From the NCBI GenBank assembly GCA_039970095.1, contig JBDVMP010000018.1, forward strand, positions 3,492 to 67,491: DNA of 64,000 bases. Reading direction: 5' to 3'. Shown piece after piece: positions 5,328 to 38,424 of the stretch. A program made the position numbers and the translations under genes. The notes beneath the pieces were generated by a model, which searched no databases, had not been told where the DNA came from, and saw only the letters and a list, made by a program, of their open reading frames with translations. Origin of the DNA: Cyclobacteriaceae bacterium. Lineage in GTDB: Bacteria; Bacteroidota; Bacteroidia; Cytophagales; Cyclobacteriaceae. Within the stretch, counting starts at the first letter, position 1; every line of letters starts with the position of its first letter.

Positions 5328-5936
5328 ATGCATAGATTTTCGGAAGAGCAAATAGAGATCGTTTCGGAACTGGTTACGGTAGCTTTGAACAAAGCCGTGA
5401 GCTCTATGGAGCAGATGCTGAGGATCAGGATCAAGGCCAACCATATTAAATACAGTCTCGGCCCATTGGAAAACATCCCCGAACTGGATCAGTTGGGGCG
5501 TTTCAAAGCTCATCTGGTCAAGCTTTTGTTTGTTGGAGATATCAGCGGAGCATTTTATTTTATCATTTTGGATCATGAGGTGGATTTGATCAACTCCGTT
5601 TGTCTTCCTGATGAGTTCAAATCAGATAAGCGGGCAGAAAATAAGCTCATGAAACATGGCTTCATGTCTGAGATTGAAAATGTGATTGCAGCACTTTCGG
5701 TAAAGGAGATCTCAGAGGCTCTTGGCGTACAACTAGAGCTGCGTGTACCGAAAATCCAAATTTTACCGGGGGTAGATATCAATGCTTTTTTTGAGAAGGA
5801 AAACAAGATTCACAAAACAGCATTTCATGTCAAATCTGTGCTGGAAGGTCAGGCCGTGAACATTGCGCCGTTTTTCATCTGGATTATGGATGATAAGTTT
5901 TTGGATGTACTCAGGTTGAATACCTCGGGTTCTTGA
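5328..5936 (+). CDS. cheC: CheC-like phosphatase, second paralog, outside the main operon and opposite in strand
   Basis: Similar to 10709-11311; one E-x2-N-x22-P site (SEIENVIAA...LRVP); first site degenerate. Confidence 0.75.
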   Translation: MHRFSEEQIEIVSELVTVALNKAVSSMEQMLRIRIKANHIKYSLGPLENIPELDQLGRFKAHLVKLLFVGDISGAFYFIILDHEVDLINSVCLPDEFKSDKRAENKLMKHGFMSEIENVIAALSVKEISEALGVQLELRVPKIQILPGVDINAFFEKENKIHKTAFHVKSVLEGQAVNIAPFFIWIMDDKFLDVLRLNTSGS

Positions 5937-5948
5937 GTAAAACCCTAT

Positions 5949-6734
5949 CTAAATAGCAAACCCCAAAATCAGGATATCGTCGTACTGCAGAGTGGAGCCT
6001 TGCCAATCTTTGATTTCGGACAAAACGGATTCCTTTTGTTTTACAATGGGCTGGTCTTGAATTTTTGCTAAAATTCTGTGAACACCTTTTGACGACAACT
6101 TTTTCTCATCAAAGCCACCCATTAGGTCTTTAAACCCGTCACTCATAAGGTAAATGTGAGAAGTCACATCCGGCTTTAGTTCTACAGAGGAGGTTTTATA
6201 GTCATGGGGGTATTCGTACATATCGCCCACCTGAAAACGGCTCGCCTTGATCTCCGTTGGCTTATTGTCCTCATATTGAATCAATCCCATTTTGGCCCCA
6301 GAGAACTCAAGCTTTCGTACGTCCAGGTTTACTTTTAGCAACCCCACGTCAGCTGCTGGGCCCATTTGCTTGTTGGACTTTTCTTTGAACTTACTCATGA
6401 GCTGATGGTGCAAATATCTGAGTATAGTGCCAGGGTCAGTAACACCTTCTTCCTTTACTATTTTGTCCAGATACTTTGTATATACGCGGGTCATCATGCT
6501 GGCCAGGTGACCGTGACCCATACAATCGAACAACGAAAGATAAAGATCAGAACCTGCCTGGTGAACCCAAAAGCCATCACCTCCGGCGCTTCCGGTCATG
6601 GGCTTATTGATGATGAAGGCATCTAGCACACTTGCCACAATTTCCTCAGGAAACATAGAGAAGTAGTTTCTCTTTGTCTGGTCCTGATCCGAGGATAGGC
6701 CAAGGTTGAAATATGCGGGTTCCTGATCGATCAT
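5949..6734 (-). CDS. Stand-alone SpoIIE/PP2C (RsbU/SiaA-type) Ser/Thr phosphatase domain
   Basis: GGDGFW, FDCMGHG, LMSDGFKDLMGG, QYDDILILG metal-binding motifs; no sensor domain. Confidence 0.88.
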   Translation of the reverse strand: MIDQEPAYFNLGLSSDQDQTKRNYFSMFPEEIVASVLDAFIINKPMTGSAGGDGFWVHQAGSDLYLSLFDCMGHGHLASMMTRVYTKYLDKIVKEEGVTDPGTILRYLHHQLMSKFKEKSNKQMGPAADVGLLKVNLDVRKLEFSGAKMGLIQYEDNKPTEIKASRFQVGDMYEYPHDYKTSSVELKPDVTSHIYLMSDGFKDLMGGFDEKKLSSKGVHRILAKIQDQPIVKQKESVLSEIKDWQGSTLQYDDILILGFAI

Positions 6735-6742
6735 TGTGAAAG

Positions 6743-7210
6743 CTACTGGAGTCCTATTACCACATATGCTTCATGATTGTTCCACATGATTGGAATGACG
6801 TAGATAGAGACATCATCAGGGATTTTGAGCTGCTCGGGCATGCCCTGAAATACCAAAGGCACGCTTATCATAAAGTTTGCCCCAAGGTTTGCCCGAACGT
6901 TTCCGGCCACAACATTGGAAATTTCACCGGCCATGTCAAGGATGTCCTCATCGGACGGGGTGTCAATACCAATAAATATTTTGATCAAGTCCTCGTACAT
7001 GTCTCTGTTGGCAGAGATATATACGAACCCCTTTCTGTTTCCGGAGATCCCAATCATTCCGGTATAGTCTTTTAGCACCAACCCTTCGGATTCTTTCAGG
7101 TAGGGCACATTCAGCTCAGAGTCAACCTCCGTCAAGTGTCTGAAATAGTTGTTGACTGAATTGATAAACAGGTTACAGGTTGCGTCGAATTCTGCTTTAC
7201 TTGTTTTCAT
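6743..7210 (-). CDS. cheX: CheX phosphatase
   Basis: DYTGMIGISG, DMAGEISNVVAGN (D-x3-E-x2-N), FMISVP. Confidence 0.92.
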   Translation of the reverse strand: MKTSKAEFDATCNLFINSVNNYFRHLTEVDSELNVPYLKESEGLVLKDYTGMIGISGNRKGFVYISANRDMYEDLIKIFIGIDTPSDEDILDMAGEISNVVAGNVRANLGANFMISVPLVFQGMPEQLKIPDDVSIYVIPIMWNNHEAYVVIGLQ

Positions 7211-7273
7211 TAATTCTATAGTTGAAAGGTTTTACTAAGCTATTAAACTTTACCTACTGATGTTGATTTTTTG

Positions 7274-7678
7274 TTATCGTCTTGCACTGTCGCGAATACC
7301 CAAACCCCGATTTGGGCCTGGTCGTTTCAAAAGACGATCAAAGGCTTTAGCCAGATCTTGCGCATTCACGGGTTTGTACAAAAACCCTCTGGCTCCTTTA
7401 TCCAGTGCTTTTAGGCCTGTTAGCTTATCGGAAAGTGCCGTTATGATCATCACTTTCGTTTTAGGGTGTATTTTCATGATTTCATCAAGACAGGCAAGTC
7501 CGTTCATACCGGGCATGGTGATATCGAGGGTAATCACATCTGGCATTTCCGCTCTTACCAACTTGAGCGCTTCATCCCCATCTGCGGCCATCCCTATGAT
7601 TTGAATATCGTATTCATTTAGGTTTTTCTCAATGATGCGTCGCATGATTGAGGAGTCGTCAACTATCAATAGCCTCAT
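7274..7678 (-). CDS. cheY: Stand-alone receiver (CheY-like), coupled to the NIT kinase
   Basis: LIVDDS, ITLDITMP (phospho-Asp), IITA, YKP; ATGA overlap with the kinase stop; 17-aa basic tail. Confidence 0.88.
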   Translation of the reverse strand: MRLLIVDDSSIMRRIIEKNLNEYDIQIIGMAADGDEALKLVRAEMPDVITLDITMPGMNGLACLDEIMKIHPKTKVMIITALSDKLTGLKALDKGARGFLYKPVNAQDLAKAFDRLLKRPGPNRGLGIRDSARR

Positions 7679-10287: not shown

Positions 10288-10315
10288 CTTAGGCTTGGTC
10301 GGTTGATGAATTCGC

Positions 10316-10684
10316 CTAGCTTTCGCTAAACACCTTGTTTACCACCTCAACTAATGCTTCTGAGGTGAAAGGTTTTACAATATAATCAGATGCTCCGAGC
10401 TCTTTGCCCTTGTTGATAACAGTTTGTTGACCAACTGCGCTGATCATGACAATTTTTGATTCCAACCCCTGATCTCTCAAGACTTTTAAGATTTCAAACC
10501 CCATCATATCCGGCAGAATGTTATCCAATGTTATCAGGTCGGGTTCGGTTTCCATGGCCAGGTCTATTGCAGACTCGCCATCTTTTGCTTCGCCTATGAC
10601 CTCATATCCGGCTTCTTCCAGAGCGGTCCTGATCAGGGATCTCATATAAATTGAATCGTCAACTATTAATACTGTATTGCTCAT
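10316..10684 (-). CDS. cheY: CheY response regulator
   Basis: LIVDDS, ITLDNILP, ISAVGQQ, IVKPF; Bacillus/Thermotoga-like SAxGQQ. Confidence 0.9.
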   Translation of the reverse strand: MSNTVLIVDDSIYMRSLIRTALEEAGYEVIGEAKDGESAIDLAMETEPDLITLDNILPDMMGFEILKVLRDQGLESKIVMISAVGQQTVINKGKELGASDYIVKPFTSEALVEVVNKVFSES

Positions 10685-10708
10685 TGTAGCGTTGTTAAAT
10701 TCTTCTCT

Positions 10709-11311
10709 TTAAACTAAGTCTTTTATTTTGTTCATAAACTCTTCGTGAAACACCCAGATAAAATCCGGAGATATATCCATTTCCATGCCTTGAAAATTTG
10801 CTTTGAAATGGATGATTGAATCAAAACCAGAGGTTTGCTTTTCCAGATATGAGTTGATATCCCGGCTGCTAATCACGTCCAGCGAAGGTACCATGCCGTA
10901 AATTTCCAATCCGAGAAAATTGGAAAACTCTGTGATCACCGCTGCGGCCATCATGTTATCCACTTCTGTGAGAAAACCCATTTTCATCATTTTACTTTCA
11001 GCGCTTTGGCTTTCTATGATGGTGGCGGGTAGGCAGGCACGGTATATTTTGTTTACCTCGTCTTCGGTGAAGATCAGGTGGCTCATTCCTTTGAGCTCTC
11101 CCATCAGGTCCGTTTTAATGAGGTGAACAGATTGCTCCGGCTCTTTTGCGAATCTGGGCAGGGCGTCTTTTATTTTATCACTGTAATCAACTTTTACCAT
11201 GGAAATGGGGCTTTGCAAAATTTGCTCCATGGACTTTTTGGCCATCGACATTCCGTCGAATACGAGCTTGGAGGCGACCTCCAGTTCGGCTTGGTTTAAT
11301 TTGTCTAGCAT
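10709..11311 (-). CDS. cheC: CheC-like phosphatase
   Basis: TEVDNMMAAA...GMVP fits E-x2-N-x22-P; located between two cheY genes. Confidence 0.8.
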   Translation of the reverse strand: MLDKLNQAELEVASKLVFDGMSMAKKSMEQILQSPISMVKVDYSDKIKDALPRFAKEPEQSVHLIKTDLMGELKGMSHLIFTEDEVNKIYRACLPATIIESQSAESKMMKMGFLTEVDNMMAAAVITEFSNFLGLEIYGMVPSLDVISSRDINSYLEKQTSGFDSIIHFKANFQGMEMDISPDFIWVFHEEFMNKIKDLV

Positions 11312-11444
11312 AGGTTGTTGGTTTGGGTTCGTAATCTCTCCATTTTGCTTGATTACGTCAAGAAAAAATGTACGAATGGGCGCGTTTTATCGGTGGACAA
11401 AGGAAATATGGATTGATCCGGCGGAAAAACATTGAGTTGATTCA

Positions 11445-11807
11445 TTATTGAAGCAAAAGCGCTAATTCTTCCAACAATTGTTCCTCTGAAAAGGGCTTAA
11501 TTAAGTATGCTTTTGCGCCGAGCGACATGGCTTCTTCTATAGCTGATTGCTGCCCTACTGCACTGATCATGATTGTGCAATGTGCTATCTTCTCCTGATT
11601 CAGAATCTGGAGTATCTGGATGCCGGTCATATCAGGCAAAATATTGTCCAGCGTTATGATGTCAGGCTTGAGCAGGGATATTTTGTCCAGAGCCTCTTCT
11701 CCGGTTTTTGCTTCCCCAACCATCTCATAGCCGGCCTTTGCAATCGTGTTTTTAACGGACATCCGGGAATATGCCGAGTCATCTACAACTAATACTCGTG
11801 GCTTCAT
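11445..11807 (-). CDS. cheY: CheY response regulator
   Basis: LVVDDS, ITLDNILP, ISAVGQQ, LIKPF; ATGA overlap with cheR. Confidence 0.9.
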   Translation of the reverse strand: MKPRVLVVDDSAYSRMSVKNTIAKAGYEMVGEAKTGEEALDKISLLKPDIITLDNILPDMTGIQILQILNQEKIAHCTIMISAVGQQSAIEEAMSLGAKAYLIKPFSEEQLLEELALLLQ

Positions 11808-12667
11808 AGTTTGACTGTTTTGTGCTTACGATAAACCTTGGTTTTGATATCTTCTACTTTGAAGAGTTTCTTTCCAGCCTCAGGCATGATGTCATAATAG
11901 CCAATGATAAGGTAACCATCGGGCCGGAGGCAGTCGTATATCATCTGAAGGACTTTCATCTTGAGTTTTTCGTCGAAGTAGATCATTACATTTCTACAAA
12001 AGACAATGTCGTAACTGCCAGTAACCGGATCATGCACCAGGTTGTGCTTCTCGAACTGAACATTTTCTTTATACAAGGCCTTAATGGTGGCATGCTTGTG
12101 GTGAAAGTCGAAATAGTCTTCCAGTTTTCTTCCGGGAAAAAACTTTAGAAAGGGAGTGAGGTATTGCTTGATGACCTCCAGAGGGTAGTCTCCTTTGCGC
12201 GCCTTGTTCAGGGCCTTGGAACTCAGGTCTGATGCCGCCAATCTCGAGCTGGTGCGCATGTTTAGTTCTTCTAGAACAATGCCCATGGTATACACTTCCT
12301 CTCCGGTGGAGCACCCGGCATGCCATATGTTTAATGGCTGTTTTTGGAACGTGGGAAGGATTTCATCTCTGAGCTTGATCCAGACATCTGGGTTTCTAAA
12401 TAGCTCAGTCAGGTTGACGAGGAGGTCATCGATGGCGGCATTAAAAAAGACTGAGTCTTTGAGGATTCGGCCCCACAAATCAAGTGAAGACTCCATGCCA
12501 TGTTTCATCATGAGCCTGTTCACCCCGCGCTTGAGGGACTGTTTTTCATAGTTGGTAAAATCAAGGCCGTATCGGTTTTTGATGGCCACCATCAGGGCGG
12601 TCATCTCTTCGTCCGTTATGAGTTCGGCGGTTTTATGCATGTTGGCCAATGCCCCGGTCATCTTCAT
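11804..12667 (-). CDS. cheR: Chemotaxis methyltransferase CheR
   Basis: VNLTELFRNP, IWHAGCSTGEEVYT, DIVFCRNVMIYFD; ATGA overlap with cheA. Confidence 0.96.
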   Translation of the reverse strand: MKMTGALANMHKTAELITDEEMTALMVAIKNRYGLDFTNYEKQSLKRGVNRLMMKHGMESSLDLWGRILKDSVFFNAAIDDLLVNLTELFRNPDVWIKLRDEILPTFQKQPLNIWHAGCSTGEEVYTMGIVLEELNMRTSSRLAASDLSSKALNKARKGDYPLEVIKQYLTPFLKFFPGRKLEDYFDFHHKHATIKALYKENVQFEKHNLVHDPVTGSYDIVFCRNVMIYFDEKLKMKVLQMIYDCLRPDGYLIIGYYDIMPEAGKKLFKVEDIKTKVYRKHKTVKL

Positions 12668-14349
12668 TTGGTTCTCTGTAGTGCTTGTTTGTGTACCGTG
12701 TCAGTGAGTACAGTAATGTCGATTACAGGGCAAACTTTTCCACTACCTAGAATTGTAGCTCCACTGATGAGTTTGATGTTTTGCAATGGGGGAGCCAGGG
12801 GCTTTTCAATAATTTCTTTTTGCTGTAGAACTTTGTCAACGACAATTCCGGTGGTGCGATCGCCATAGGAAACGATGATTACATCAAAAGGCTTGTTTTC
12901 TCCTAGTTCAAAAGTTTTATGAAGAGCTCCCCGATAATGCGCATCTGAAAGCTGATCCATCTCTAAAAGATCCTGAAGAAAAACCAGAGAGACGGCCTCA
13001 CCCTGAAAGTCTGTTGTGAGTCCTGGGCCTAATTTTTGAATTTCACTTTTTTGACGCGTGATAACAGCTTCTGTATAGGAAAGAGCAATGGCGTATGTCT
13101 GATTTTTTATTTCGAAAAGCAAGGTTCCTTTCAGCGCCAAAGAAGCCGGAACGTGAAGTTCTATTCTTGTGCCTTCTCCCTTTGTTGTTTCGATTTTGAC
13201 CTGGCCACCTACAGACTCTACGGCCTTTTTCACCACATCCATTCCCACTCCACGACCGGAGATCTCGCTTACCTTGTCTGTGTTGGAAAAACCGGATGCA
13301 AATATGAACTGAATTACTTCCGAATCGGGGAGGCTTTCCCCGACCTGTTTTGACACCAGCTTGCGCGCGATGATTTTGGCTCTGATCGTTTCCACATCTA
13401 TCCCTGCCCCATCGTCTGTTACAGATATCACGACCCGATCTCTTTCATATGCTGCTGCCAACTCTACCTGACCATCGCTGTTTTTGGAGGCTTTTTTTCT
13501 TTTTTCGGGGCTCTCGATCCCGTGACTCACGGCATTGCGTATCAGGTGAACGAGGGAATCACCGATAATTTTTAGAATATTTCTGTCTATTTCAACATCA
13601 GTTCCTTTGAGGATCAGACTCACTTTTTTGTTTTCAACAGCCGAAGCATCGCGTAACACACGGTGAAACTTATTGAAAAGAAAGCCGACCTGAACCATAC
13701 GCACGTTCATGATGCTATACTGAAGGTTGGAGGAAATGCGCTTGAGCGCATCCAGCTCAGAAGTCCCTCTTCCGAGTTGCTCTGATAAACTGATGAGCCG
13801 ATCTCTTTCTATAATGAGCTGTCCCACTTCGTTCATCATTTCATCCATTTTTTTCACTGGCACCTGGATCACATCCGAAAACGAGATTTGGCTTTCAGGT
13901 TGTTCCTGCTCTGTTTCTTCCTCTGCGTGAGTAGTTTCTTCCTCTGCATTTTCATCTTTGGCGGCCAGTGCCTTTTGGAGAAAGAGTGTCAGGCTGGTTT
14001 TTATACCGAGATAACTCACTTTCTGGTCTGTTTCTAATGCTGTGACGAGGCTTTTGAGCTTATCGTTTGCACGAAATATCAGATTAAAAAGGTCAGCACC
14101 AAGCCGTATTTTTTCTTCCTGTATGGCGAGCATGACATCTTCTATAGTGTGGGATAGCTCTGCGATGGCATCAAAACCCATGCCCATGGCATTGCCCTTC
14201 ATGGTGTGGGTGATTCGGAAGATTTCTTTTATGGCCCGACTGTTTTTGTGGTCTTTTTCAAGGTCCACAAAAAGTTTGTCCAGGTGTTCCTGGTTGTCTT
14301 TTGCTTCGACAAGGAAGAGCTCTTTATATTCTGATTCTTTTGATTTCAC
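12664..14349 (-). CDS. cheA: Chemotaxis histidine kinase CheA (P1-P3-P4-P5, no P2)
   Basis: GTG start; HPt FRITHTMKGNA (His48); short acidic linker; P3 VPVKKMDEMMNEVGQL; P4 HLIRNAVSHGIE, DDGAGID, SGRGVGMDVV; C-terminal CheW domain. Confidence 0.96.
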   Translation of the reverse strand: MKSKESEYKELFLVEAKDNQEHLDKLFVDLEKDHKNSRAIKEIFRITHTMKGNAMGMGFDAIAELSHTIEDVMLAIQEEKIRLGADLFNLIFRANDKLKSLVTALETDQKVSYLGIKTSLTLFLQKALAAKDENAEEETTHAEEETEQEQPESQISFSDVIQVPVKKMDEMMNEVGQLIIERDRLISLSEQLGRGTSELDALKRISSNLQYSIMNVRMVQVGFLFNKFHRVLRDASAVENKKVSLILKGTDVEIDRNILKIIGDSLVHLIRNAVSHGIESPEKRKKASKNSDGQVELAAAYERDRVVISVTDDGAGIDVETIRAKIIARKLVSKQVGESLPDSEVIQFIFASGFSNTDKVSEISGRGVGMDVVKKAVESVGGQVKIETTKGEGTRIELHVPASLALKGTLLFEIKNQTYAIALSYTEAVITRQKSEIQKLGPGLTTDFQGEAVSLVFLQDLLEMDQLSDAHYRGALHKTFELGENKPFDVIIVSYGDRTTGIVVDKVLQQKEIIEKPLAPPLQNIKLISGATILGSGKVCPVIDITVLTDTVHKQALQRTK

Positions 14350-14351
14350 GC

Positions 14352-15377
14352 TTATAAACAGTTTACCAAATAACCTCCGATTTCGTTGATGTTTAAAACC
14401 ACGGCCGCAGCACCCTTTTCCCGGGCTATTTTTGGCATGCCATAGATGATACTCGAAGCTTCATCCTGAGCAATCGTAAGGCCGCCGGCTTCTAAAATTT
14501 TGCTGAGTCCCTTTACTCCGTCTTTGCCCATGCCCGTGAGCAACACACCTATCGCTTTTTGCCCAAATGTTAATGCTACAGACTCTAAAAGGGCGTTTAT
14601 GGAAGGGTTGTTGTATTCTTTATATTCCTGACCTGAAAAACCAATAGTATATGTTTCTCCCTTCTTTTTTATAACGGTGTTGCCTTCTCCGCTGGCAATC
14701 ACGATCATGCCTGGTTTGATAACGAGACCTTCTTTACTGACTACCACATCAAGGTTGCTGAGCGAGTTGAGGCGTCTGGCAAAAGAACGAATGAAGTTGT
14801 GAGGCATGTGCTGTCCAATAACAACGGGAACGTTTAGGTTGGCCGGAAGCGAGGTGATTATTTTTTCTATGGCTGTTGGCCCACCTGTAGATGCCCCGAT
14901 GGCGATAATGTCATATTGAGGCTGGGGCTCAAATGTGTGTGTGAGCTGATTGAGACCTGCTTCTTGTATGTGAGTTGGTTTTGGCCGGGCGCCTGCTACT
15001 TTTTTTATTCTGGCGATAAGCTGTGCCTCCATTTCCCGAATCTTGGAACCACCCTTTTTTGGTTTGTTGATATAGTCAACCGCGCCGAGCCTAAGGGCAT
15101 CAAATATTGGATCCAGGTTTGTGTTGCCGACGGAGCTCAAAATCAGGATAGGGCAAGGGCAGTGTTTCATGATTTGCTCCACGGCGTAAAGCCCATCAAA
15201 ATCGCCCATGTTCATATCGAGCAGAACCAGGTCTGGTTTCAACTGTGCTGTTTGCTTTACGGCCTCCTTGCCATCTGTCGCAGTACCGATTACCTCAATT
15301 TCGTCATCTTTTGAGAGGAGGTCTCCGAGTAGGAGCCGCATAAAAGCGGAATCATCGACTACTAGTATTTTAATCAT
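14352..15377 (-). CDS. cheB: Chemotaxis methylesterase CheB (REC + esterase)
   Basis: N-terminal REC; catalytic GASTGG, QHMP, LTGMGKDG. Confidence 0.97.
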   Translation of the reverse strand: MIKILVVDDSAFMRLLLGDLLSKDDEIEVIGTATDGKEAVKQTAQLKPDLVLLDMNMGDFDGLYAVEQIMKHCPCPILILSSVGNTNLDPIFDALRLGAVDYINKPKKGGSKIREMEAQLIARIKKVAGARPKPTHIQEAGLNQLTHTFEPQPQYDIIAIGASTGGPTAIEKIITSLPANLNVPVVIGQHMPHNFIRSFARRLNSLSNLDVVVSKEGLVIKPGMIVIASGEGNTVIKKKGETYTIGFSGQEYKEYNNPSINALLESVALTFGQKAIGVLLTGMGKDGVKGLSKILEAGGLTIAQDEASSIIYGMPKIAREKGAAAVVLNINEIGGYLVNCL

Positions 15378-15383
15378 GCGCCT

Positions 15384-16115
15384 TTATCTGGTGGTTGGCG
15401 TTTTTACCTGAGATTGCATTCGGTCGCCTTCTATAAGCTCATCAATATCTATAAAAAAGGCCATTTGCCCCTCATACCTGACCACACCTTTGATATAAGT
15501 TTCTTCACGTGGTAGTTCCGTCACGGTACCTGATGCTACTTCAATATCTGAACCATTTACGCGTATGTTTCCAGGAACTTGCGGAAGCAAGATCCCCACG
15601 GTGAATCTCTCACTGGAGACAATCATGGTATATGTATAAGCAGCGCTTGGTTTCTCTAAACCGAGTTTCTGCGCCAGGTCGATTAAAATGATGCTATTGT
15701 TTCTGATAGTGGCAATACCGGGAATGTAGTCGGGTGTCCTGGGAACGGCGGTCACCTGCGGTGTTTTTACCACTTCGTTTACCTTGTTTATTTCCACAGC
15801 AAAGTCATTTCCGGAAAGGTTAAAAACCACCAGATGGGCTTTGGTGTCTGCTAGTGATGTTATTTCTGTTCTGAACTTTTGGTGAAGGGCTTCTCTTCTC
15901 AGCACTTCATCCGGAGAAATTAAACCCTCTGTCTGAGCCTTCGTTGTTTTAGGTTTTTGGCTTTGTTTCTTTTTAGCTTTTACCGTCGCTTTTGGGGCAT
16001 GCTTTGGTTCAATTAACTTTTTGGGCGCAATTTTTTTCTTCTTCTGTATTGTGGTTTTATCCTTCACCAGAGGAGGAGCCGACTTTGTTTTTTTAAGGTT
16101 GTTTCCCAGTGCCAT
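15384..16115 (-). CDS. cheW: CheW with long Lys/Pro-rich N-terminal extension
   Basis: LVVFNLSGNDFAVEINKVNEVV, TAVPRTPDYIPGIATIRN; ~65-aa basic N-terminus starting MALGNNLKK; TAATG overlap with parA. Confidence 0.88.
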   Translation of the reverse strand: MALGNNLKKTKSAPPLVKDKTTIQKKKKIAPKKLIEPKHAPKATVKAKKKQSQKPKTTKAQTEGLISPDEVLRREALHQKFRTEITSLADTKAHLVVFNLSGNDFAVEINKVNEVVKTPQVTAVPRTPDYIPGIATIRNNSIILIDLAQKLGLEKPSAAYTYTMIVSSERFTVGILLPQVPGNIRVNGSDIEVASGTVTELPREETYIKGVVRYEGQMAFFIDIDELIEGDRMQSQVKTPTTR

Positions 16116-16861
16116 TACTTTATTGTTTTCAAAAGCTCTTTGGTGAATGATCTGTAGTCCTGTGCGCTTGATGAAGACGGGGAGTAAGTAAGCACACTTT
16201 GTCCAAAAGAGGGTGCCTCAGAAGCGCGAACATTTGTTCTGATATAATTTGAAAAAATTTTGTAGGTGTAATTTTCCCTGATGTGATCCATGATTTCATT
16301 GCTGAGCTTGCGACGTTTGTCTAGCATGACCGGCAATATCCCCAAAACTGCCAGTTTGGGGTTTGAGGTGTTACGGATTTTTTCGATGGTATCTGATATG
16401 AGATCCAGACCCTGAAGGCTGAGTACCTCCATTTGCATGGGAATGATAATTTTGTCAGCACAAGTGAGTGCATTTATAGTCATGAGTGAAAGCGACGGAG
16501 GGCAATCAATCAAAATATGATCATAATCGTTTTTGACCTCATCGAGAATTCCCTGCAGGATTGACTCGCGATTGTGCTCTTCGGCAATGGCCAGCTCCAG
16601 ATCAGCGAGTGATACATCGGAAGGGGCAATATCCAGCTCTTCGCGTGATACGATTATGTCTGTTATTGCTACTTCACCCTGGATAACCTCTGCCATGCTA
16701 CTTTCGGCATGCTGTATGCCCAAAGAATATCCCAAGCTTCCCTGAGCATCCATATCTACAAGCAAAACACGTTTTTTGGATTCACTCAGTCCTCGACCAA
16801 GGTTGATTGTCGTGGTGGTTTTTCCAGTTCCTCCTTTTTGGTTGACAATTGCTATGATCAT
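16115..16861 (-). CDS. parA: ParA/Soj-family ATPase within the che operon (ParC/PpfA-like role inferred)
   Basis: Deviant Walker A NQKGGTGKTT, LVDMDAQG, LIDCPPSL, SEAPSFG. Confidence 0.92.
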   Translation of the reverse strand: MIIAIVNQKGGTGKTTTTINLGRGLSESKKRVLLVDMDAQGSLGYSLGIQHAESSMAEVIQGEVAITDIIVSREELDIAPSDVSLADLELAIAEEHNRESILQGILDEVKNDYDHILIDCPPSLSLMTINALTCADKIIIPMQMEVLSLQGLDLISDTIEKIRNTSNPKLAVLGILPVMLDKRRKLSNEIMDHIRENYTYKIFSNYIRTNVRASEAPSFGQSVLTYSPSSSSAQDYRSFTKELLKTIK

Positions 16862-17038
16862 GAGAAAGTTTGCACCGCTTAGTTAGGTTAAACTTAAAGA
16901 GTTCTTGATTGAATTTTAAAATAAATTCGTTCAATACGCTCTGGCCATGGGTGTGCTGGCAGAAAAACGGATGATCTGGAATTTGGAATGTTGGTTGTGC
17001 CCTTTATACAGATTAAAATGAAGGTTTTTGAAATCGTT

Positions 17039-17458
17039 CTAAGACAAGACCCTCGTTTTCAATCGGCTTTGAGCGGCGATTACTTTTAGTTCTTCGGTTG
17101 TACGCATACAAAATGGGAGACTCAATAGGTCGCTAAAGTCTTCACCGCATTCCAGCATGTCTTCATCATACTCATCGTAATACCAGTTTACCCGAATCTT
17201 AGTGCCGGATTTTTCGAAGGTCTTCACCTTTTTGAGAATTTCATAAATACACTTCGCACTAGATGTATTGAACATACTGAAACACATATTTACAACCAGA
17301 TGTTTCGGCGTAGACGGACAGTTTGTGAGGTTGTCCATAATCGGTTTGTAGAAGGAAATGCTATGATCGGGAGAGGATAAACCCTTGATGTCTAAACGAC
17401 CCCTGTCCAGATCTAACCTGACTAATGGGGTTTTGTTGGTTGGTTTGATTAATAGCAT
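17039..17458 (-). CDS. SiaC-family (DUF1987) regulatory phosphoprotein
   Basis: KPTNKTP, KGLSSP, FYKPI, FNTSSAK (Thr65), VNWYYDEYDEDMLECGEDFS. Confidence 0.85.
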   Translation of the reverse strand: MLLIKPTNKTPLVRLDLDRGRLDIKGLSSPDHSISFYKPIMDNLTNCPSTPKHLVVNMCFSMFNTSSAKCIYEILKKVKTFEKSGTKIRVNWYYDEYDEDMLECGEDFSDLLSLPFCMRTTEELKVIAAQSRLKTRVLS

Positions 17459-17569
17459 ATAGGTTGAAAATATAGGTGACCATGATAAGGCTTCTTGACG
17501 CCAACTACTAGCATTATTCGTTTAAGGGACTTATCAAATCGACCAAATAGAACATAAATAGTTTTCTGG

Positions 17570-20095
17570 CTATTCCTCTATGTTGATGTGATTGGCCTCT
17601 TTGGTAATGTCTCTTGAGATACCGAATGTACCAATGATTTTGCCGTCAGTATCTTTGAGAGGCATTTTGGTGGTGGAGACAGTTTTTACTGACCCATCTG
17701 GTTGATCTACTTTCTCAACCAAATTCATTAATGGCTCGCCTGTATTGATAATTCTTTGCTCGTCTTCATAGGCTTTTTGTGCATGGTCGCTGTAGAAGTC
17801 AAAGTCGGACTTACCGATCATTTCTTCCAAGTTCTCAACGAGATGTCCGTAAGACTTGCTCACTCGGGTAAACTTGCTGTCTTTATCCTTGAAATAGATG
17901 TAGTCCGGCATATTGTTGAGAAGAGCGTCGAGATAACTTTTTTCCTTTTCGAACATCATTTGGTTCATTTTCAGGTCTGTGATGTCTCGAGATATTCCGA
18001 AGGTACCAATGATGTTTCCATCTACGTCTTTGAGAGGCATTTTAGTGGTGGACAGGTATTTAATCTCACCATTTTTGAGATCCGCTTTTTGCACGATGTT
18101 GATCAGAGGCTTATTGGTGCGGATTATTTGTTGTTCTTCTTCATAAGCTACACGAGCATGCTGTCCATGGAAGTCAAAATCAGATTTTCCTAAAATCTCA
18201 TTTTGGTGGTCCATTCCAAAACGCGTAATGTGAGATTGGCTGTTTCTGATAAACTTACTGTCTTTGTCTTTGAAGTAGATAAAATCAGGGCTGTTGTCCA
18301 GCAGAGCGTCCAGTAGGCTTTTCTCCTTTTCGTAAGCTTCGCGCATTTGAAACAGTGCGTTGTTTTGTTGGCTTTGTCCGGAGAGTCTAACCATGCTGAT
18401 CCCTTCGCTGAATTTTTCTGCCACTTCGGCCAGACTTTGGGCCTTTTCATTATAGCTGCCCATTCCGGACGACAACTCTGAAGCAGAGCTGGCCACTTCT
18501 TCTGTGCCAGCAGCGGTTTGCTCGGCAATGACCACAACACTTTCGGTGATGGTCACCACGTTGTTGATGCTGCTAATCTGGTTTTGTGCCGAAGTGAGTA
18601 TGTCTTCAGAGAAGCTTAATGTATTATTAGAAGAATTTAGAATTTCTTTGAAAGACGTTGAGGCGGTCTGAGATGTTTCTTCTCCTCCTTTGACGACCTT
18701 TTTCATTTGCTCCATTACTTTCACAGCGTCTTCAGTATCTGCATGTACACTGTTAACGAGTTTTTCAATTTCCTTTGCCGACTTTCTGGAGTCTTCGGCC
18801 AGCTTTCTTATTTCCTCTGCTACTACGGCAAAACCTCGTCCAGAATCTCCTGCTTGCGCTGCTTCAATGGCTGCATTGAGGGCTAAAAGGTTTGTTTGCG
18901 CCGCTATTTCCGTTATCACACTGAGCGCACTTGATATTTCGCTGCTTCGCTCATTTAGCACTTGCATGGAGGAGTCCGTTTTGTTACTAAACTCGGAAAT
19001 TTCCTTCATGCTGTTGACCACATTATCTATTAGGTTCATGCCGTTTTCGCTGCTTTTAGCTCCGGTTTTGGCAGCTTCATTGATGGCTTCAGACTTGATG
19101 ACCATCTTTTTGGAGTCTTCCAGAATCCTTTCCATAAGTGCGGAGGATTCATCAACTTTTGAGACTTGGTTTTGTGCTCCATTGCTCATCTGAGCAATGG
19201 CAGAAGCGATCTCATTGGTGTTGGCGTTCATCTCTTCGCCGGTTACTTTCATTTCAGTAGCAGACTCGTCGATGACCTTCACATTTTCAGAGATCTGATG
19301 AAGAAGGCCGTCAAGGTTGTCTAAAGCCAGGTTAAGGTTGGTAGCCATGGTTTTTATTTCTCCCTTAGCTTCTTCTTTGTAGCGTAGCGTTAAATCACCA
19401 GAAGACATGGCTTTTACTATTTTGTTGATTGCTGCAAATGGAGTAGCAATACTTTCAAGCAGCTGATTTACGTTTGACGAAAGTCTCAGCCATACGCCCT
19501 CTTTGCCGGATAGCCCGATACGTTCATTAAAGTGACCATCTTCCCCGGCACTTTTTACCACTTCATTGGTTTCACCCACCATCATTTTTAAGTTTTGGCG
19601 CATGCTGATCAAAGAGTTTCCGAGTAAATCGTTTTCTCCTTTGGTATGGTACTCAGTGTCAAGGTTACCTTGAGAAATATCCTGCGCGAAAGAAGCAGCC
19701 TGCTTAACAGCCTCCAACAGGCTATTCATAGCCACAGATAACAACCCGACCTCATCTTGCCGCTTGATCAAATCCTCTGGAATGTTACTTACTTCTCCAG
19801 AGGTCAGAAGGCTCACTCGTTTGGATATTCGGTGGATCGGTATGCTGAGTATGATGAAGCAATACCTGAAATATGCCGATGTAACAAGGCAGCCTAGAGG
19901 TAAAACCCAGGCTAAATGTATAAGTCCTTTTTCAGCCACAAAATATCCAAAAACGGACATCATGATAAGAAGTACGATCAGTGGCCATGACAGCTTAAAT
20001 AGTAGCGTTTTTTTGAACAATAGCCTTACCGACATGAAACTTAGCGGTGCGGCAATTAAAAGAAGGATTAGGGTAAAAATTGAAAAATCACTCAT
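17570..20095 (-). CDS. Methyl-accepting chemotaxis protein: ~3 TM, no periplasmic sensor, multiple HAMP, signalling domain, two C-terminal PAS domains
   Basis: [34 protein letters not shown]; two PAS repeats [13 protein letters not shown] / [13 protein letters not shown]...[23 protein letters not shown] after the hairpin. Confidence 0.93.
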
Positions 20096-20141
20096 TGCTG
20101 GTTGTTATTTGGGTTTGCTGGTTATGGGGTTGGAAAGTTTG

Positions 20142-20669
20142 TTAAATCATTTTTAATATATCAACTAAAAAGATCATTTGATCTTCGTGTTTGGCAATTC
20201 CGACAATGAACTCATCGTCTTCAGTTAAGTTTTGTAAGACGGAGGCAGACTTGTTGATACTGGGTTCTTCAATCATGACTGTTTTGGGCACTGTTTTAAC
20301 TAAAATTCCGGCTTGAAATTCTTCACTGTTGATTACCAGAACGAAAGCCGTGTGGTTTGGAGTTTTTGCTGGTGAAGTGGATACTCTGGATTCAGCGTCC
20401 ACGATGCTAATCACAGAGCCTCGCACATTCGTCACACCCAAAATGTAATCTTGTGTTTGGGGAATGGGAGAAATATCCGGGGCGTTTACTACTTCTTTCA
20501 CGTCATGGATGGGTGCTCCGTATTGCTGATCGCCCAGCTGGAATACCACGATGGCTTCCTTTTTTATCGTGTCCTGCGTGCCGTGAACCAGTTGGGTTTT
20601 TTCGGCATGATCAACCCAGCTTTTTCCTTCAGGTATCAATGAATTTGTATTTTGGGAAGGTTTACTCAC
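20142..20669 (-). CDS. cheW: CheW coupling protein
   Basis: GTG start; IVVFQLGDQQYG, VKEVV, ISPIPQTQDYILGVTNVRGSVI; between the two MCP genes. Confidence 0.93.
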   Translation of the reverse strand: MSKPSQNTNSLIPEGKSWVDHAEKTQLVHGTQDTIKKEAIVVFQLGDQQYGAPIHDVKEVVNAPDISPIPQTQDYILGVTNVRGSVISIVDAESRVSTSPAKTPNHTAFVLVINSEEFQAGILVKTVPKTVMIEEPSINKSASVLQNLTEDDEFIVGIAKHEDQMIFLVDILKMI

Positions 20670-20676
20670 GTAAGTT

Positions 20677-23184
20677 TTAACTTAATCTAAACTTGCTTAT
20701 TCTCTCATTCAAACCTACTGCGACCTGAGATAGGTCTGCTGTCTTCTCATTGTAGTTGTCCATACCGGCCGAAAGCTCGGTGGCAGAACTTGCAATTTCC
20801 TCAGTGCCCGCAGCAGTTTGCTCAGCTATTACCACCACAGATTCGGTGATGGTCACTACGTGTTTGATAGCATCTATTTGCTGGAGCACATGGTTTCTGA
20901 TTTCGTCTGATACGTTGAGATTGGCATTGGCCGACTCATATATTTCGTTGAATGCATCCGAAGCATGTTTTGTGGCATCCTCCCCACTTTGTACACTGGC
21001 CTTCATCATTTCTATGGCTGTACTGGCACTGGATACATCCTTCTTCACGTCCAGAATAAGCTTTTCTATTTCTTTCGCCGATTTGCGAGAGTCCTCGGCC
21101 AGCTTGCGAATTTCCTCAGCCACCACTGCAAAGCCACGTCCTGCATCCCCAGCCTGGGCGGCTTCTATGGCGGCATTGAGTGCCAGTAAGTTTGTTTGAG
21201 CTGCAATTTCGGTTATGACCGAAAGGACACTGGAGATCTCATTCGAACGATCCGTTAGGACCTGAATGGAGTTGTAAGTTTCGCCCGAAAAAGCAGAAAT
21301 ATCACGCATGCTAAACCCTGCCTTTTTTACCAACTTCAGCCCTTTGTCGCTGTTGTCGGAGACCTCCTGGGCTACACTTTTGATTTTATCGGCCTGATCT
21401 CCCATCTTGTTTGAGGACCTGAGGATTCCTTCTACCAGGTTGGAAGACTCATCTACTTTTGTCACCTGATTTTGTGCTCCACGGCTCATTTCTGAAATAG
21501 AAGAGGCAATTTCACGGGTGTTGAGAGTCATCTCTTCATTTACACCGAGCATTTCCACAGCAGAATCAGCCACACGCTTGGATCCTGCCAAAATTCCCTT
21601 GATCAGGTCGCTGATGTTATCAAGGGCGGAATTTAGGTTGTTGGAGAGTACCTGTATATCTCCTTGTACATTGCTGCTAAACCTTACGGTGAGGTCCCCA
21701 TCAGCCATGGCGTTTACCACATGGTTTATTTCTTTGAATGGGTTTGCCAGAGAGTCGAGAAGCGAGTTTATCGAATCGCTAAGCTCTTTCCACGCACCAT
21801 TTTCCCAGTCAGTCTCAATCCGCGCGGTGCTTAGTTCGCCGGATTCTCCTGCTCTTTTCACCACAGTGTTGGTTTCACTGATAACTGTCTCCAGGTTTTC
21901 GCGCATGCGCAAAAGTGCATACCCCAGCATATCCCGATCGCTCGATACTTCAAAAGATTCTGACAGGTTGCCTAGACCAATCTGATGTGCAAAGTTTGAC
22001 TTATATATCAACTGATCCATTAGGTGATTTGCGGAAGTTGCCAGCTGACCGATTTCGTCTGAGGACTTGAAGTCCAGCCTGTTTTCCACATCTAAATCTC
22101 CCGTTGACAGCCGTTGTAGCATTTCGCTTGATTGATCCAATGATCTGGCGATGGAGGTAGCAATTTTGTAGGTAATGATAATGAGTATTATCAGCCCGAT
22201 CAGTCCCACAGCAATAGTTGCAAAGAATGTTCTGGCGATGGGGCCGGTTATTTCCTTGATGGGGATTTCCAAACCGGCAGACCATGGGGATTTCGAATAT
22301 CCAATTTCTATAGGAGCAAAAGCGATCATCACCTCTTCCTTGCCAAAACCAGCGTTATTTGCAGTAAAAGACGTTGTTTCTCCGTTAGCGATGATTGACT
22401 TTAAGTCAAAACCCAGACTTTGATAAAACGGCAATGAATCCAATGGCTGGTTGGCATATTTAAGGTTTTCGTGGGTAATTACGGTTCCTTTGTTTGAAAC
22501 AAGGAAAGCAAAGCCTCTATCGAAAAAGTCTATCTCAGACATTGATTCAAAGTCATCCAAAAACATGTCTGTTCCGATCAGTCCGGCAAATTTTCCATCT
22601 AGCATGATGGGGGCTTCCGGAGAAACACCCAGCAACAATTCGTCTGATTTTCCTCCATAGGCAGCAAATTTGTAGGGCTCGCCAATGATTTCTTGCGGGT
22701 TTTGTTTGATGTAGGAATACAGCCCCGTTTCAGGGTCGCCGTTCAGGTTATCCAGACGAATGTGCTCCTGAACATCACCATCATCGAGGTAATAGGTGGC
22801 CCTTTCACGACCGAAGGGTTTGTCCCACTCCGGGTCTATGGACCAGAGCTCGTAACTCATCCAGGCGGCCTCATATTTGGGGTTTGATTTGAGGGCGCCA
22901 ATCATGATTTGTTTTCTAACTTCAGTTCTTTGGTCTGCGGGAAGAGAAAGCGCGGCTTCCATGGCTGTGGCCATAGACCGAGTCACGGCAATGTCTTCAC
23001 TCAAAATCCTGGAGATTTCATTTGCCTTCTGGCTTGCAGCTGTATTTACCAGCTTCCACCCCTCTTCTATCGCCTGATTTCGCAGGCTCAGTGTGATATA
23101 GCCCAGCGTAAACACGTACGTCAGTATCATGGTGCCTATGATAAACACCATCATTTTTTTTCGAATGCTAAAATTCAAGTTCAT
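20677..23184 (-). CDS. Methyl-accepting chemotaxis protein with periplasmic dCache domain and multiple HAMP
   Basis: TM1, ~290-aa periplasmic region ([26 protein letters not shown]), TM2, HAMPs, [29 protein letters not shown]. Confidence 0.94.
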
Positions 23185-36989: not shown

Positions 36990-37475
36990 TTAGAAAATTT
37001 CAATTAAATCAAGGTCTTCCATGCTTTTGATCAGCGTCGGGATCTTTTGCCACGGAATGTCACCTCTCAGATAAAAGGCCACCGCCAGTTCGTCTGACCA
37101 CATATACCCTGCAAACTCCTGCTGGCGTCTATCGCTTTTTCCTACTATGGACAAGCTCATGCCGCCTCCCTGCGCAGAAGCGTATTCTTCAAAACCCACA
37201 CTTTGGTATTTTTCCGATACCTCTCTGTAAGATTTATTTGCCTGGCTGCTGCTATCTAGTTGGTATATGAGCAATTTTTCTACACCGGTAGCCAGCTCGT
37301 TGAAGTCAGCATTTTGCTTGATATTGACCATGCGAAGCGTGCTGGGATAAAAGCAATATTTGCCTTCATTGCTTTTTTCGAATTGGTCTTTCAGGATGGA
37401 TTCCTGTGCAAAAAGGGGCTGCTGTGACAGCCCCAGAATTGAAACAAAGAGGATAATCTTAATCGTCTGCATCAA
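36990..37475 (-). CDS. Exported DUF4252-like protein
   Basis: Signal peptide ..FA|Q; FYPSTLRMVN; GFEEYA; adjacent to a DUF4252 gene. Confidence 0.65.
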   Translation of the reverse strand: MMQTIKIILFVSILGLSQQPLFAQESILKDQFEKSNEGKYCFYPSTLRMVNIKQNADFNELATGVEKLLIYQLDSSSQANKSYREVSEKYQSVGFEEYASAQGGGMSLSIVGKSDRRQQEFAGYMWSDELAVAFYLRGDIPWQKIPTLIKSMEDLDLIEIF

Positions 37476-37980
37476 GTTTGCCTAAATTGTCCAAACCGCC
37501 TACATTCATAGATCTCGCTATTTTGGAGATGTTTTTCAGGTCTATTTCGCCGTAGAGGCTCAGCAGCACAAAATGCTTGTTTCCACCTACTACCATGATC
37601 AGCTCTTCTATGATACCGTTTTTGTCTTTGATAGAAAACTTCATGTTTTCTTCTGCATCCTTGACGGACATCAGTTCCTCATACCCGGCAGCTTCCACGT
37701 CTGTAGTTGCTCTTTTGTACATGGCAGCTGAGTTTGCAATGGAGTCTGCGGCTATCACCTTGAGGCCTTTCAGTTTGCTGATGGCTTTGAGAAACTCTTT
37801 TTCCTCTTCGCTTCCTGCTTCCAGCTCTGTGAAAAGCGAAAACATCTTGCTGCTGACGGACACCTTTGTGAAGGCGTCATTGTCTGCCAATTCATTCAAA
37901 TAATTGGTCACGACTTTCCCTTGTGCAAACACTCCCAGGGAGGTCAAAATAATTGCGATTGATAATAATATCTTTTTCAT
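37459..37980 (-). CDS. DUF4252 domain protein
   Basis: Signal peptide ..FA|Q; FTKVSVSSKMFSLF, KLKGLKV, GYEELMSVKD, ELIMVV, LYGEIDL. Confidence 0.88.
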   Translation of the reverse strand: MKKILLSIAIILTSLGVFAQGKVVTNYLNELADNDAFTKVSVSSKMFSLFTELEAGSEEEKEFLKAISKLKGLKVIAADSIANSAAMYKRATTDVEAAGYEELMSVKDAEENMKFSIKDKNGIIEELIMVVGGNKHFVLLSLYGEIDLKNISKIARSMNVGGLDNLGKLDADD

Positions 37981-37998
37981 GTCTTTGATCTTAAAATG

Positions 37999-38424
37999 TT
38001 ATTCTTCGTCTGAAATAATTTGTTCTGCTTTGTTGATATGTCCTATTTCTTTGGAATAAGTCTTGCCCTCATTCAACCCCGACGAAACCATCATCAGCGC
38101 TTTTCTGGTGATTTCGTAGGCTTCTTTTGGGTCCTCTACCAAAAAGTTGTCCCCGTTTCTCGAATCCTGTATCACGATGGCGGCCGTCATGATGCCAACC
38201 AGAAGAGCCGCTGCTACTGACCACTGGCTTTTCCAACCCGTACGTCCTGGATGCTTAAAGGTCACGCCGGGCTTTTTGCCTTTGGCGTTTACCGCCTGAA
38301 AGTACCTTCCCTGAGCTGTCAAAGAAGGGTTGGATTTGAAATATGCTTTCAATTCTGCTTCTTCGGCCAGCGATGTTTCACCAGCCCAATACTTTTCCTG
38401 CAATTCCTTAATTCGCGATTCCAT
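37999..38424 (-). CDS. Putative anti-sigma factor (single TM)
   Basis: MESRIKELQEKYWAGETSLAEEAELKAYF N-terminus, one TM (SVAAALLVGIMTAAIVI); directly after the ECF sigma gene. Confidence 0.7.
   Translation of the reverse strand: MESRIKELQEKYWAGETSLAEEAELKAYFKSNPSLTAQGRYFQAVNAKGKKPGVTFKHPGRTGWKSQWSVAAALLVGIMTAAIVIQDSRNGDNFLVEDPKEAYEITRKALMMVSSGLNEGKTYSKEIGHINKAEQIISDEE

Follow-up and report, generated by a model that had tools for sequence, protein, structure and literature searches.

What does a complete chemosensory pathway control in a bacterium in which no flagellar, archaellar or pilus target is found? The question is raised by a che gene island at positions 5,328 to 23,184 of the window, the whole 64,000-nucleotide stretch analyzed here, which comes from contig JBDVMP010000018.1 (C18) of a marine, Marinoscillum-like member of the Cytophagales. 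The island consists of 16 co-directional minus-strand genes, running from 23184 down to 5949, and one convergent plus-strand gene at 5328-5936, as established by the open reading frame (ORF) listing and by Pfam and NCBIfam scans. In the order of transcription, the minus-strand genes encode a methyl-accepting chemotaxis protein (MCP1), CheW1, MCP2, SiaC, ParA, an extended CheW, CheB, CheA, CheR, CheY1, CheC1, CheY2, a NIT-sensor kinase, CheY3, CheX, and a PP2C phosphatase. This is the gene set and order that a first-pass annotation of the DNA had proposed, and all 17 genes are present. Each CheY, described there as lacking an output domain, is indeed a single-domain protein (120, 122 and 134 aa), and the remaining window holds housekeeping and unrelated genes, in keeping with the statement that it has no fli, flg, mot or type IV pilus genes. 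The island is also complete, as had been claimed: CheA, CheW, MCP, CheB, CheR, CheY, and CheC/CheX are all encoded, and the core of CheA (Hpt, dimerization, ATPase and CheW-like domains), CheW and MCP scores above the Pfam gathering cutoffs throughout. We conclude that the island is an F1-like pathway without a flagellar target, to which are added a CheA-like kinase fused to a sensor, a third CheY together with CheX, a PP2C phosphatase, and a ParA/ParP-like pair.

The 5.19-Mb host genome (108 contigs; 98.5% complete, 1.1% contamination) contains no match to FHIPEP (FlhA) or FliG_C, each of which was detected in control genomes, and none to T2SSE, the family of PilB, PilT and GspE, for which 13 of 14 control genomes were positive. 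A full flagellar gene set, which the first-pass annotation had named as the finding that would overturn its view of a non-flagellated bacterium, is found nowhere in the genome. The archaeal-type adaptor (CheF-arch) is likewise absent from the genome, which rules out a route through CheF. A route through FliM is unlikely, with FlhA and FliG absent and no relevant FliM-N-like peptide in the six-frame ORFs, a search of low power made without FliM's Pfam model and with a single regex match, inside a histidine kinase. There is no GGDEF domain in the whole genome, which excludes an output through cyclic di-GMP, whether SiaD- or WspR-like, including a cyclic di-GMP route to adhesion. By these searches the genome has neither the PilB/PilT target of Tfp-class systems nor the terminal GGDEF diguanylate cyclase of Wsp- or Sia-type systems, and it has neither the flagellar or archaellar genes nor the CheF target of F-class systems, the FliM target being covered by the peptide search and not by its Pfam model. 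Present are GldM (GldM_1st, 6.7e-29), SprA (SprA_N, 3.1e-150) and a gldK-L-M-N operon at C99:44058-48472, which together mark the host as a gliding bacterium with a type IX secretion system (T9SS).

Could flagella or pili have been missed, or could the contig be a binning or assembly artifact from a flagellated organism? The assembly is an incomplete draft, and some related loci lie in metagenome-assembled genomes (MAGs) labelled Rickettsiales or Roseobacteraceae. However, the absent markers were each found in control genomes, and in two sequencing runs of one study (X2 and X3) single contigs of 64.8 and 88.6 kb (depths 314 and 116) span the whole 19.5-kb stretch and its flanks at 100% identity, while a further run (X1) covers the stretch in three overlapping pieces at 100% identity. 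The X1-X3 assemblies may be the source data; an 80-kb contig from a different study (X5) matches at ~98% (382 differences). The same cluster is also found in the genomes of cultured Marinoscillum, Ekhidna and Reichenbachiella strains and in complete chromosomes. As for the oddly labelled MAGs (L010, L040, L041, L044 and L062, assigned to Rickettsiales, Roseobacteraceae, Thalassobius or Thalassovita), their contigs have Cytophagales-type che synteny, so the labels are likelier in error, and the contigs are probably mis-binned or mislabelled. A chimeric contig was the other finding that the first-pass annotation had named as overturning its view; the contig is not chimeric, since other assemblies and cultured relatives share the island with its flanks, and its placement in the Cytophagales stands, the closest CheA loci being those of Marinoscillum and of "Cyclobacteriaceae" MAGs. 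We give the artifact explanation next to no credence.

The island is the only che cluster in the genome. Searches of all six-frame ORFs with the island proteins (phmmer) reveal no second CheA, CheW, CheB, CheR, CheX or CheC, and at most two extra MCP-like matches, both weak. The cluster is chromosomal and not mobile, a mobile genomic island being rejected on the grounds of uniform G+C (0.41-0.46), housekeeping neighbors, and flanks common to relatives. Promoter and terminator scans for the operon boundaries gave counts no higher than the shuffle expectation, with a sigma-70 consensus that is unsuited to Bacteroidota.

To judge by its sequence, the core of the island looks like a class F1 chemosensory pathway. 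The F1 class is normally tied to flagella or archaella, as reportedly described by Wuichet and Zhulin in 2010 and Alexander and Zhulin in 2007, and formal class assignment is by MiST/Wuichet-Zhulin profile models specific to each class for CheA, CheW, CheB and CheR. In common with the F1 systems of Thermotoga maritima, Bacillus subtilis and archaea, the island has 44-heptad receptors and adaptation by CheB and CheR, both of which are identified by Pfam (Table 1). Of the F1 accessory set CheC/CheX/CheD, it has CheC-type proteins and CheX, and CheD is found in sister clusters of other Cytophagales. Its CheA is closest to T. maritima CheA, and CheY2 is closest to Pyrococcus and Thermotoga CheY (PDB 6er7, 4e-27, and 1tmy, 2.7e-26, compared with ~1e-17 for Escherichia coli CheY). 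The best NCBIfam models are those for Thermotogales CheC/CheX and haloarchaeal CheA. Unlike F1 systems, there is no flagellum or archaellum, FliG or CheF here (FliM itself was not searched), the island lacks CheD and CheV, and CheA lacks P2. The pathway further exceeds the F1 pattern by the ParA/ParP-like pair, the NIT-sensor CheA-like kinase, a third CheY, PP2C, and SiaC.

Both receptors belong to the 44-heptad class, with ~154-157 residues or ~22 heptads per arm, as obtained by counting residues around the GRGFAVVA tip and not by profile classification. MCP1 is composed of a transmembrane (TM) helix at 10-28, a ~285-aa periplasmic Cache-like domain, a second TM helix at 314-332, two HAMP domains, and the signaling hairpin, with the tip motif at 682 and ~154 aa per arm. 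MCP2 begins with three TM helices, lacks a periplasmic domain, and continues with HAMP and the signaling domain, the tip motif being at 419. The two PAS domains of MCP2 are C-terminal, lying after the signaling hairpin rather than before it. CheA, the sole canonical CheA of the genome, has domains P1, P3, P4 and P5; P2 is missing because the P1-P3 linker, at only 52 residues, is too short to hold it. The three CheYs keep the usual acidic pocket, Ser/Thr and Lys; CheY1 and CheY2 are 47% identical, and CheY3 is 32% identical to either.

A second kinase is encoded between CheY2 and CheY3. It reads, in order, TM, periplasmic NIT, TM, HAMP, PAS-like region, Hpt (His598), and a CheA-type P4, and its PDB matches are the P4 domain of T. 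maritima CheA (3.2e-28) and the NIT domain of NasR (4akk, 3.5e-12). The Hpt histidine lies in a CheA-like context, IH[S/N]LK[G/S/A]NA. Among 31 orthologs, His598 is invariant and the G1 box is kept in every one, and the N box matches the search pattern in 27, which argues that the protein would function like CheA through His598 and its P4-type ATPase. Pfam and the PDB search reveal no CheW-like P5 domain and at most half of a P3. A published census of CheA architectures has a CheW domain in every CheA and a CheA without a sensor domain (PMC10782961). As P5 is absent and the protein has its own NIT/HAMP/PAS-like sensor part, it is CheA-like in its working and not a CheA by definition. Among 1.84 billion representatives searched, the full NIT-to-P4 architecture is rare, being found in seven clusters at 35-55% identity. 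In contrast, the PAS-Hpt-P4 module is common, making up the majority of the 150 best matches, joined there to other sensors; 1190 proteins match the query at an E value of ≤1e-30, a count in which the regions of match are not separated. This module, which lacks P5, constitutes a large unnamed sensor-kinase family with fusions to NIT, GAF, PAS, and Reg_prop/Y_Y_Y propellers.

The island encodes three putative CheY phosphatases, two CheC-type proteins and CheX. CheC1 and CheC2 have no significant Pfam match, their sole matches being to NCBIfam CheC_Thtogales, with E values of 6.6e-8 and 0.0035. A closer look at the alignment shows that the motif E-x2-N-x22-P (E116, N119, P142), which corresponds to the second active site of CheC, is invariant in 30 orthologs and paralogs; the first phosphatase site is lost, with Gly and not Asp or Ser at position -4. 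In a Foldseek search, the AlphaFold model (mean pLDDT, 88) matches T. maritima CheC 1xkr (E, 1.3e-11; TM score, 0.69) and a Haloarcula CheC-like protein, 3qta (TM score, 0.75), with further matches to FliY, CheX and the FliM middle domain. Paralogy, motif and modelled fold together thus confirm the two genes as CheC type, with the CheC/CheX/FliM fold predicted and at least one phosphatase site retained. CheX carries DMAGEISN at residues 92-99, the D-x3-E-x2-N core, and is the most conserved protein of the island, at 79-100% identity among orthologs; compared with the "Cyclobacteriaceae" MAG L003, it has no amino acid change (dN = 0 at a dS of 0.37).

Next to each other in the operon lie a deviant-Walker-A ParA and a CheW protein with a 90-residue N-terminal extension, a Lys-rich linker and a C-terminal CheW domain. 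ParA adjoins the extended CheW in 36 loci, and all 36 CheW orthologs that follow ParA (the window and orthologs among L003-L080) start with the peptide MALG(K/G/N)N(L/V/I)KK. The linker is hypervariable in sequence and length (proteins of 204-356 aa). Peptide and linker look like a ParA-contacting peptide on a flexible tether. The same arrangement, a ParA-type ATPase beside an array protein with an N-terminal extension and a C-terminal CheW domain, is found in ParC-ParP of Vibrio and PpfA-TlpT of Rhodobacter sphaeroides. By this analogy the ParA is probably an array-positioning ATPase, ParC/PpfA-like; the likeness is one of architecture, whereas the MALGxNLKK peptide, like the long linker rich in Lys, is particular to this lineage of Cytophagales.

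To establish how the island is distributed, related loci were collected with CheA as the query. The 80 loci recovered are nearly all from Cytophagales, some of them in cultured type strains and closed chromosomes. CheA identity is 92% with the "Cyclobacteriaceae" MAG L003, 61-71% with Marinoscillum, ~52% with Ekhidna and Reichenbachiella, and 42-52% with Flammeovirga, Flexithrix, Ohtaekwangia, Pseudochryseolinea, Algivirga, Mangrovivirga, Marivirga, and Rhodocytophaga. Marinoscillum, Ekhidna and Reichenbachiella make up the Reichenbachiellaceae, with G+C contents of 39.8-45.4% (PMC6767994). Marinoscillum and Ekhidna share the synteny ParA-CheWext-CheB-CheA-CheR-CheY-CheC-CheY-NITkinase-CheY-CheX-PP2C; SiaC and CheC2 occur only in part of the Marinoscillum clade, and Reichenbachiella has a shorter version. 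In the remaining genera the order is ParA-MCP-CheW-CheY-(CheD)-CheB-CheA-CheC-CheR, with CheD identified by Pfam (1.8e-12). The island itself has no CheD, and it has two CheC-type proteins and CheX. The three closest loci, L003-L005, carry the same flanking genes. Reichenbachiella genomes also hold a second, different che cluster (L067, L069 and L074), in which CheA is longer (~700 aa) and which includes three CheYs in tandem and a SiaC-like gene.

The island is under strong purifying selection. Compared with L003, the ratio of nonsynonymous to synonymous substitution (dN/dS) stays within 0-0.17 in every one of the 17 genes, at dS values of 0.34-1.06. Compared with Ekhidna, the most conserved proteins are CheX (79%), CheY2 (74%) and CheY3 (73%), with CheA at 54%, and CheY2 is 72-89% identical across Marinoscillum and Ekhidna. 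These figures bear on the notion that the island is a nonfunctional relic of a flagellated ancestor or a recent transfer. CheA is widespread in other classes of the phylum and patchy within the family, as would be expected of a relic or a transfer, but all 17 ORFs are intact under the selection just described, catalytic residues are invariant, and synteny is kept across genera at 50-70% protein identity. Uniform G+C and flanks common to relatives argue that there was no recent insertion. This explanation is close to refuted, and we regard it as very improbable.

Whereas the first-pass annotation took it as known that most Bacteroidota lack che systems, this does not hold for Cytophagales. In an even sample of 301 Cytophagales genomes from 134 genera, the CheA dimerization domain is found in 96 genomes and 54 genera, so the island exemplifies a phenomenon that extends across the order and has been little studied, and is no singular oddity. 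GldL is found in 276 of the 301. FHIPEP has matches in two (G080 and G171), which are partial, cover only the C-terminal part of the profile, and fall into several adjacent pieces; they do not represent ordinary FlhA genes. The distribution is patchy even among close relatives, as 20 sampled genomes of the same GTDB family lack CheA, including the two with the most similar GldL (77% and 71%). In a sample of 401 genomes of the phylum, CheA is found in 104, of which 99 are from other classes and two from other orders of the same class, counts that come without denominators per rank.

What, then, does the pathway control? The first-pass annotation had suggested that it could steer gliding or control adhesion or aggregation. 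Our preferred reading, which we hold tentatively and as somewhat less than an even prospect, is that the island is a functional, chromosomally inherited F1-type pathway without a flagellar, archaellar or pilus target that controls gliding or the T9SS motor. The design of the island, with its adaptation enzymes, three phosphatases, stand-alone CheYs, and positioning ATPase, has the hallmarks of motility-controlling F-class systems, and gliding is the only motility apparatus detected in the genome. Rotation of the T9SS can switch direction, and a published statement has it that there is no evidence of a sensory transducer for its motor (PMC12239597); Ekhidna, which has a T9SS, is described as motile (PMC12998431).

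In such a pathway, the receptors, CheW and CheA would build membrane arrays, which the ParA/ParP-like pair would position or partition along the cell. CheA would phosphorylate the CheYs, and the NIT kinase would feed a second, receptor-independent signal, possibly nitrate or nitrite, to CheY2 and/or CheY3. CheC1, CheC2 and CheX would strip the phosphate quickly, and CheB and CheR would adapt the receptors; fast dephosphorylation plus such adaptation would allow a fast temporal comparison, as is typical of taxis. Phosphorylated CheY (CheY-P) would bind the cytoplasmic part of the T9SS/gliding motor, with GldL as the leading candidate, and alter the frequency of gliding reversal or the speed, giving surface chemotaxis or energy taxis. 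PP2C, with SiaC where present, would form a slower side branch through Ser/Thr phosphorylation. The more specific proposition, that in Cytophagales CheY-P from an F1-type array binds GldL or another inner-membrane part of the T9SS motor and thereby switches rotation direction or speed, we consider doubtful.

Two known systems offer parallels. First, PorX contains a CheY-like receiver which, when phosphorylated, attaches to the cytoplasmic domain of GldL/PorL (PMC10951265, PMC5005315), and this PorX-PorL/GldL pair of Porphyromonas gingivalis and Flavobacterium johnsoniae is the only published contact between a receiver and the gliding motor (PMC10951265, PMC5005315). PorX, however, is a response regulator of the REC-PglZ type with the classical kinase PorY as its input, whereas here a stand-alone CheY would be fed by CheA; PorX is not known to affect rotation direction, and a CheY-GldL contact here is suggested by analogy. 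Second, Frz of Myxococcus xanthus would share Che-type control of surface motility without flagella, through receivers that do not bind FliM. This analogy is functional only, as the island has no CheA-CheY fusion (FrzE), no cytoplasmic receptor of the FrzCD type, and no dual-receiver FrzZ. The motor would be the T9SS GldLM here, in contrast to Agl-Glt and type IV pili in M. xanthus, and reversal control, a known function of Frz, is a proposal here.

Several observations weigh against control of gliding. Linkage to gld or spr genes is seen in none of the 80 related loci, whose neighbors are lineage-specific housekeeping genes. When the 849 unassigned ORFs from these loci were clustered, no conserved non-che gene was found to accompany the cluster across clades; the recurrent neighbors are an ABC-F ATPase, GAF-PAS sensors and CheD, the others being lineage-specific housekeeping genes recognized by eye and not all scanned. 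GldL itself bears no che-specific signature, as 13 che-positive and 17 che-negative Cytophagales have GldL of equal length with no discriminating column. Some che-negative genomes of che-positive genera may be incomplete, and for a CheY-GldL contact this null result is uninformative rather than refuting. Close che-negative relatives keep GldL at 71-77% identity, implying that gliding is possible without the pathway. The runs with the sequence look like DNA assemblies (long contigs through the flanks), none usable for RNA was identified, and a literature search on chemotaxis or Che systems of these genera, Cytophagales or Bacteroidota gliders found nothing specific. Lastly, PP2C is kept at the end of the operon and recurs near other Bacteroidota che clusters, which points to a non-motility, partner-switch output.

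This last point leads to the main rival, a Ser/Thr partner switch, in which CheY3-P, its signal ended by CheX, would regulate PP2C, and PP2C would dephosphorylate SiaC or a STAS-type antagonist encoded elsewhere. The effect would be on gene expression or on cell surface properties (aggregation, development or polysaccharide) and not on movement, making the island an "alternative cellular function" system. PP2C is the last gene of the operon in both Marinoscillum and Ekhidna, and PP2C-like genes lie near the che clusters of L029, L039, L040, L062, L065, L073 and L079. SiaC is found inside the island here and in some relatives. It scores 114 bits with Pfam (cutoff, 24.5) and 67 bits with the NCBIfam equivalog (1.1e-18; cutoff, 150), and five paralogs lie outside the island, on C29, C53 (two in tandem), C51 and C82. 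Three single-domain STAS proteins are encoded elsewhere in the genome. Compared with SiaABCD of Pseudomonas aeruginosa, the island shares a SiaC-family protein and a PP2C that resembles only the C-terminal, catalytic part of SiaA (NCBIfam, 1.7e-32; 113 bits against a cutoff of 700) and lacks its membrane/HAMP part; Pfam scans reveal neither SiaB kinase nor full-length SiaA in the island. As the genome has neither SiaD nor any GGDEF domain, the known Sia output is impossible, and Sia-type switches here must have a non-cyclase output. Against this reading, most orthologous islands lack SiaC, PP2C does not occur in the simpler Cytophagales clusters, and the island contains no SiaB-type kinase, STAS protein or sigma factor. 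Moreover, three fast phosphatases and CheB/CheR adaptation exceed the needs of a slow transcriptional output. We consider a partner switch possible but, on balance, unlikely.

Elsewhere in the genome, a Sia-like region at C29:9753-16552 encodes a SiaA-like sensor PP2C (642 aa), a REC-PP2C, a histidine kinase, and one of the SiaC paralogs. Beside this paralog is encoded a 186-aa protein that is a SiaB-like candidate by visual inspection and not by a scan, an arrangement that also counts in favor of a partner-switch output.

Finally, instead of steering, the pathway might gate T9SS secretion or another envelope process, for instance by letting adhesins, proteases or enzymes that degrade polysaccharides out of the cell close to prey or particles. 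Secretion and gliding are powered by one and the same GldLM motor (PMC10951265). The exudates with which Ekhidna algicida kills diatoms putatively contain proteases secreted by the T9SS (PMC12998431), and 27 kb from the island the window holds a giant adhesin-like ORF of the LamG/DUF285 type. Set against this, no linkage to secretion genes or substrates was found in the related loci, a machinery for temporal adaptation is not obviously required for such gating, and the idea has no precedent. We judge it improbable.

Table 1. Genes of the che island in order of transcription, with the convergent CheC2 gene last. Numbers after domain, model or structure names are E values.
Feature	Position	Strand	Evidence
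MCP1	20677..23184	-	Pfam MCPsignal 1.2e-38, HAMP_2, HAMP, weak dCache_1
CheW1 coupling protein	20142..20669	-	Pfam CheW 1.1e-25
MCP2	17570..20095	-	Pfam MCPsignal 1.2e-40, HAMP, PAS_4/PAS_9 at 603-833
SiaC-family (DUF1987) phosphoprotein	17039..17458	-	Pfam SiaC 4.3e-33
ParA/MinD-type ATPase	16115..16861	-	Pfam AAA_31 1.3e-54, CbiA, MipZ; deviant Walker A KGGTGKT
ParP-like extended CheW	15384..16115	-	Pfam CheW at residues 95-229
CheB methylesterase	14352..15377	-	Pfam CheB_methylest 1.6e-54, REC 2.6e-21
CheA kinase	12664..14349	-	Pfam Hpt, H-kinase_dim, HATPase_c, CheW; PDB T. maritima CheA 1b3q 1.1e-73
CheR methyltransferase	11804..12667	-	Pfam CheR 3.3e-43, CheR_N
CheY1 stand-alone receiver	11445..11807	-	Pfam Response_reg 1.9e-25; DD/D/S/K active-site residues read from sequence
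CheC1	10709..11311	-	NCBIfam CheC_Thtogales 6.6e-8; E116, N119, P142; AlphaFold2 model matching CheC 1xkr
CheY2 stand-alone receiver	10316..10684	-	Pfam 2.3e-28
NIT-sensor CheA-like kinase, 870 aa	7675..10287	-	Pfam NIT 8e-51, HAMP, HATPase_c
CheY3 stand-alone receiver, short basic C-terminal tail	7274..7678	-	Pfam 1.5e-28
CheX phosphatase	6743..7210	-	Pfam CheX 2e-19
PP2C (SpoIIE/SiaA-type) Ser/Thr phosphatase, 261 aa, without sensor domain	5949..6734	-	Pfam SpoIIE 1.5e-11
CheC2, CheC1 paralog, convergent with operon	5328..5936	+	phmmer vs CheC1 5e-31; E-x2-N-x22-P motif

The rest of the window contains holB-like, hemC, peptidyl-prolyl isomerase, prfA, polA, lgt and PPK2 genes, an extracytoplasmic function (ECF) sigma cluster, a CHAT-TPR protein, and the giant adhesin-like ORF. 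The ECF sigma factor and two DUF4252 proteins lie at 36990-38920. The TPR-CHAT protein (1062 aa, 46930-50118) adjoins a classical HisKA histidine kinase at 45502-46875. The adhesin-like frame, at 50378-64000, runs off the end of the window and encodes >4540 aa with eight Laminin_G_3 domains, Big_5, and DUF285 repeats; its in-window part, 27 kb from the island, has no SprB-family Pfam match, and its C terminus lies outside the window.

How gliding Bacteroidota choose their direction is an open question, and many gliding relatives of this organism keep a full taxis-grade pathway under strong selection. Related clusters are present in about a third of the sampled Cytophagales genomes, without a flagellum or pilus as target. 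To our knowledge, Flavobacterium johnsoniae, the model organism of gliding, has no che genes. Cultured carriers include Marinoscillum furvescens, Ekhidna lutea, Reichenbachiella faecimaris, Flexithrix dorotheae and Flammeovirga species, and with close che-negative relatives also at hand, sensory control of Bacteroidota gliding becomes directly testable. Were the target the GldLM motor, the pathway would present a new CheY-motor interface; were it the PP2C switch, a new type of output for F1 systems. If CheY-P acts on the T9SS motor, it would be the missing sensory transducer of Bacteroidota gliding and the third independent coupling of CheY to a rotary motor, after FliM and CheF, and the NIT kinase would extend the same switch to a nitrate/nitrite or redox taxis that needs no receptor. 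The pathway is also relevant to the way in which Bacteroidota associated with marine particles and algae locate substrates.

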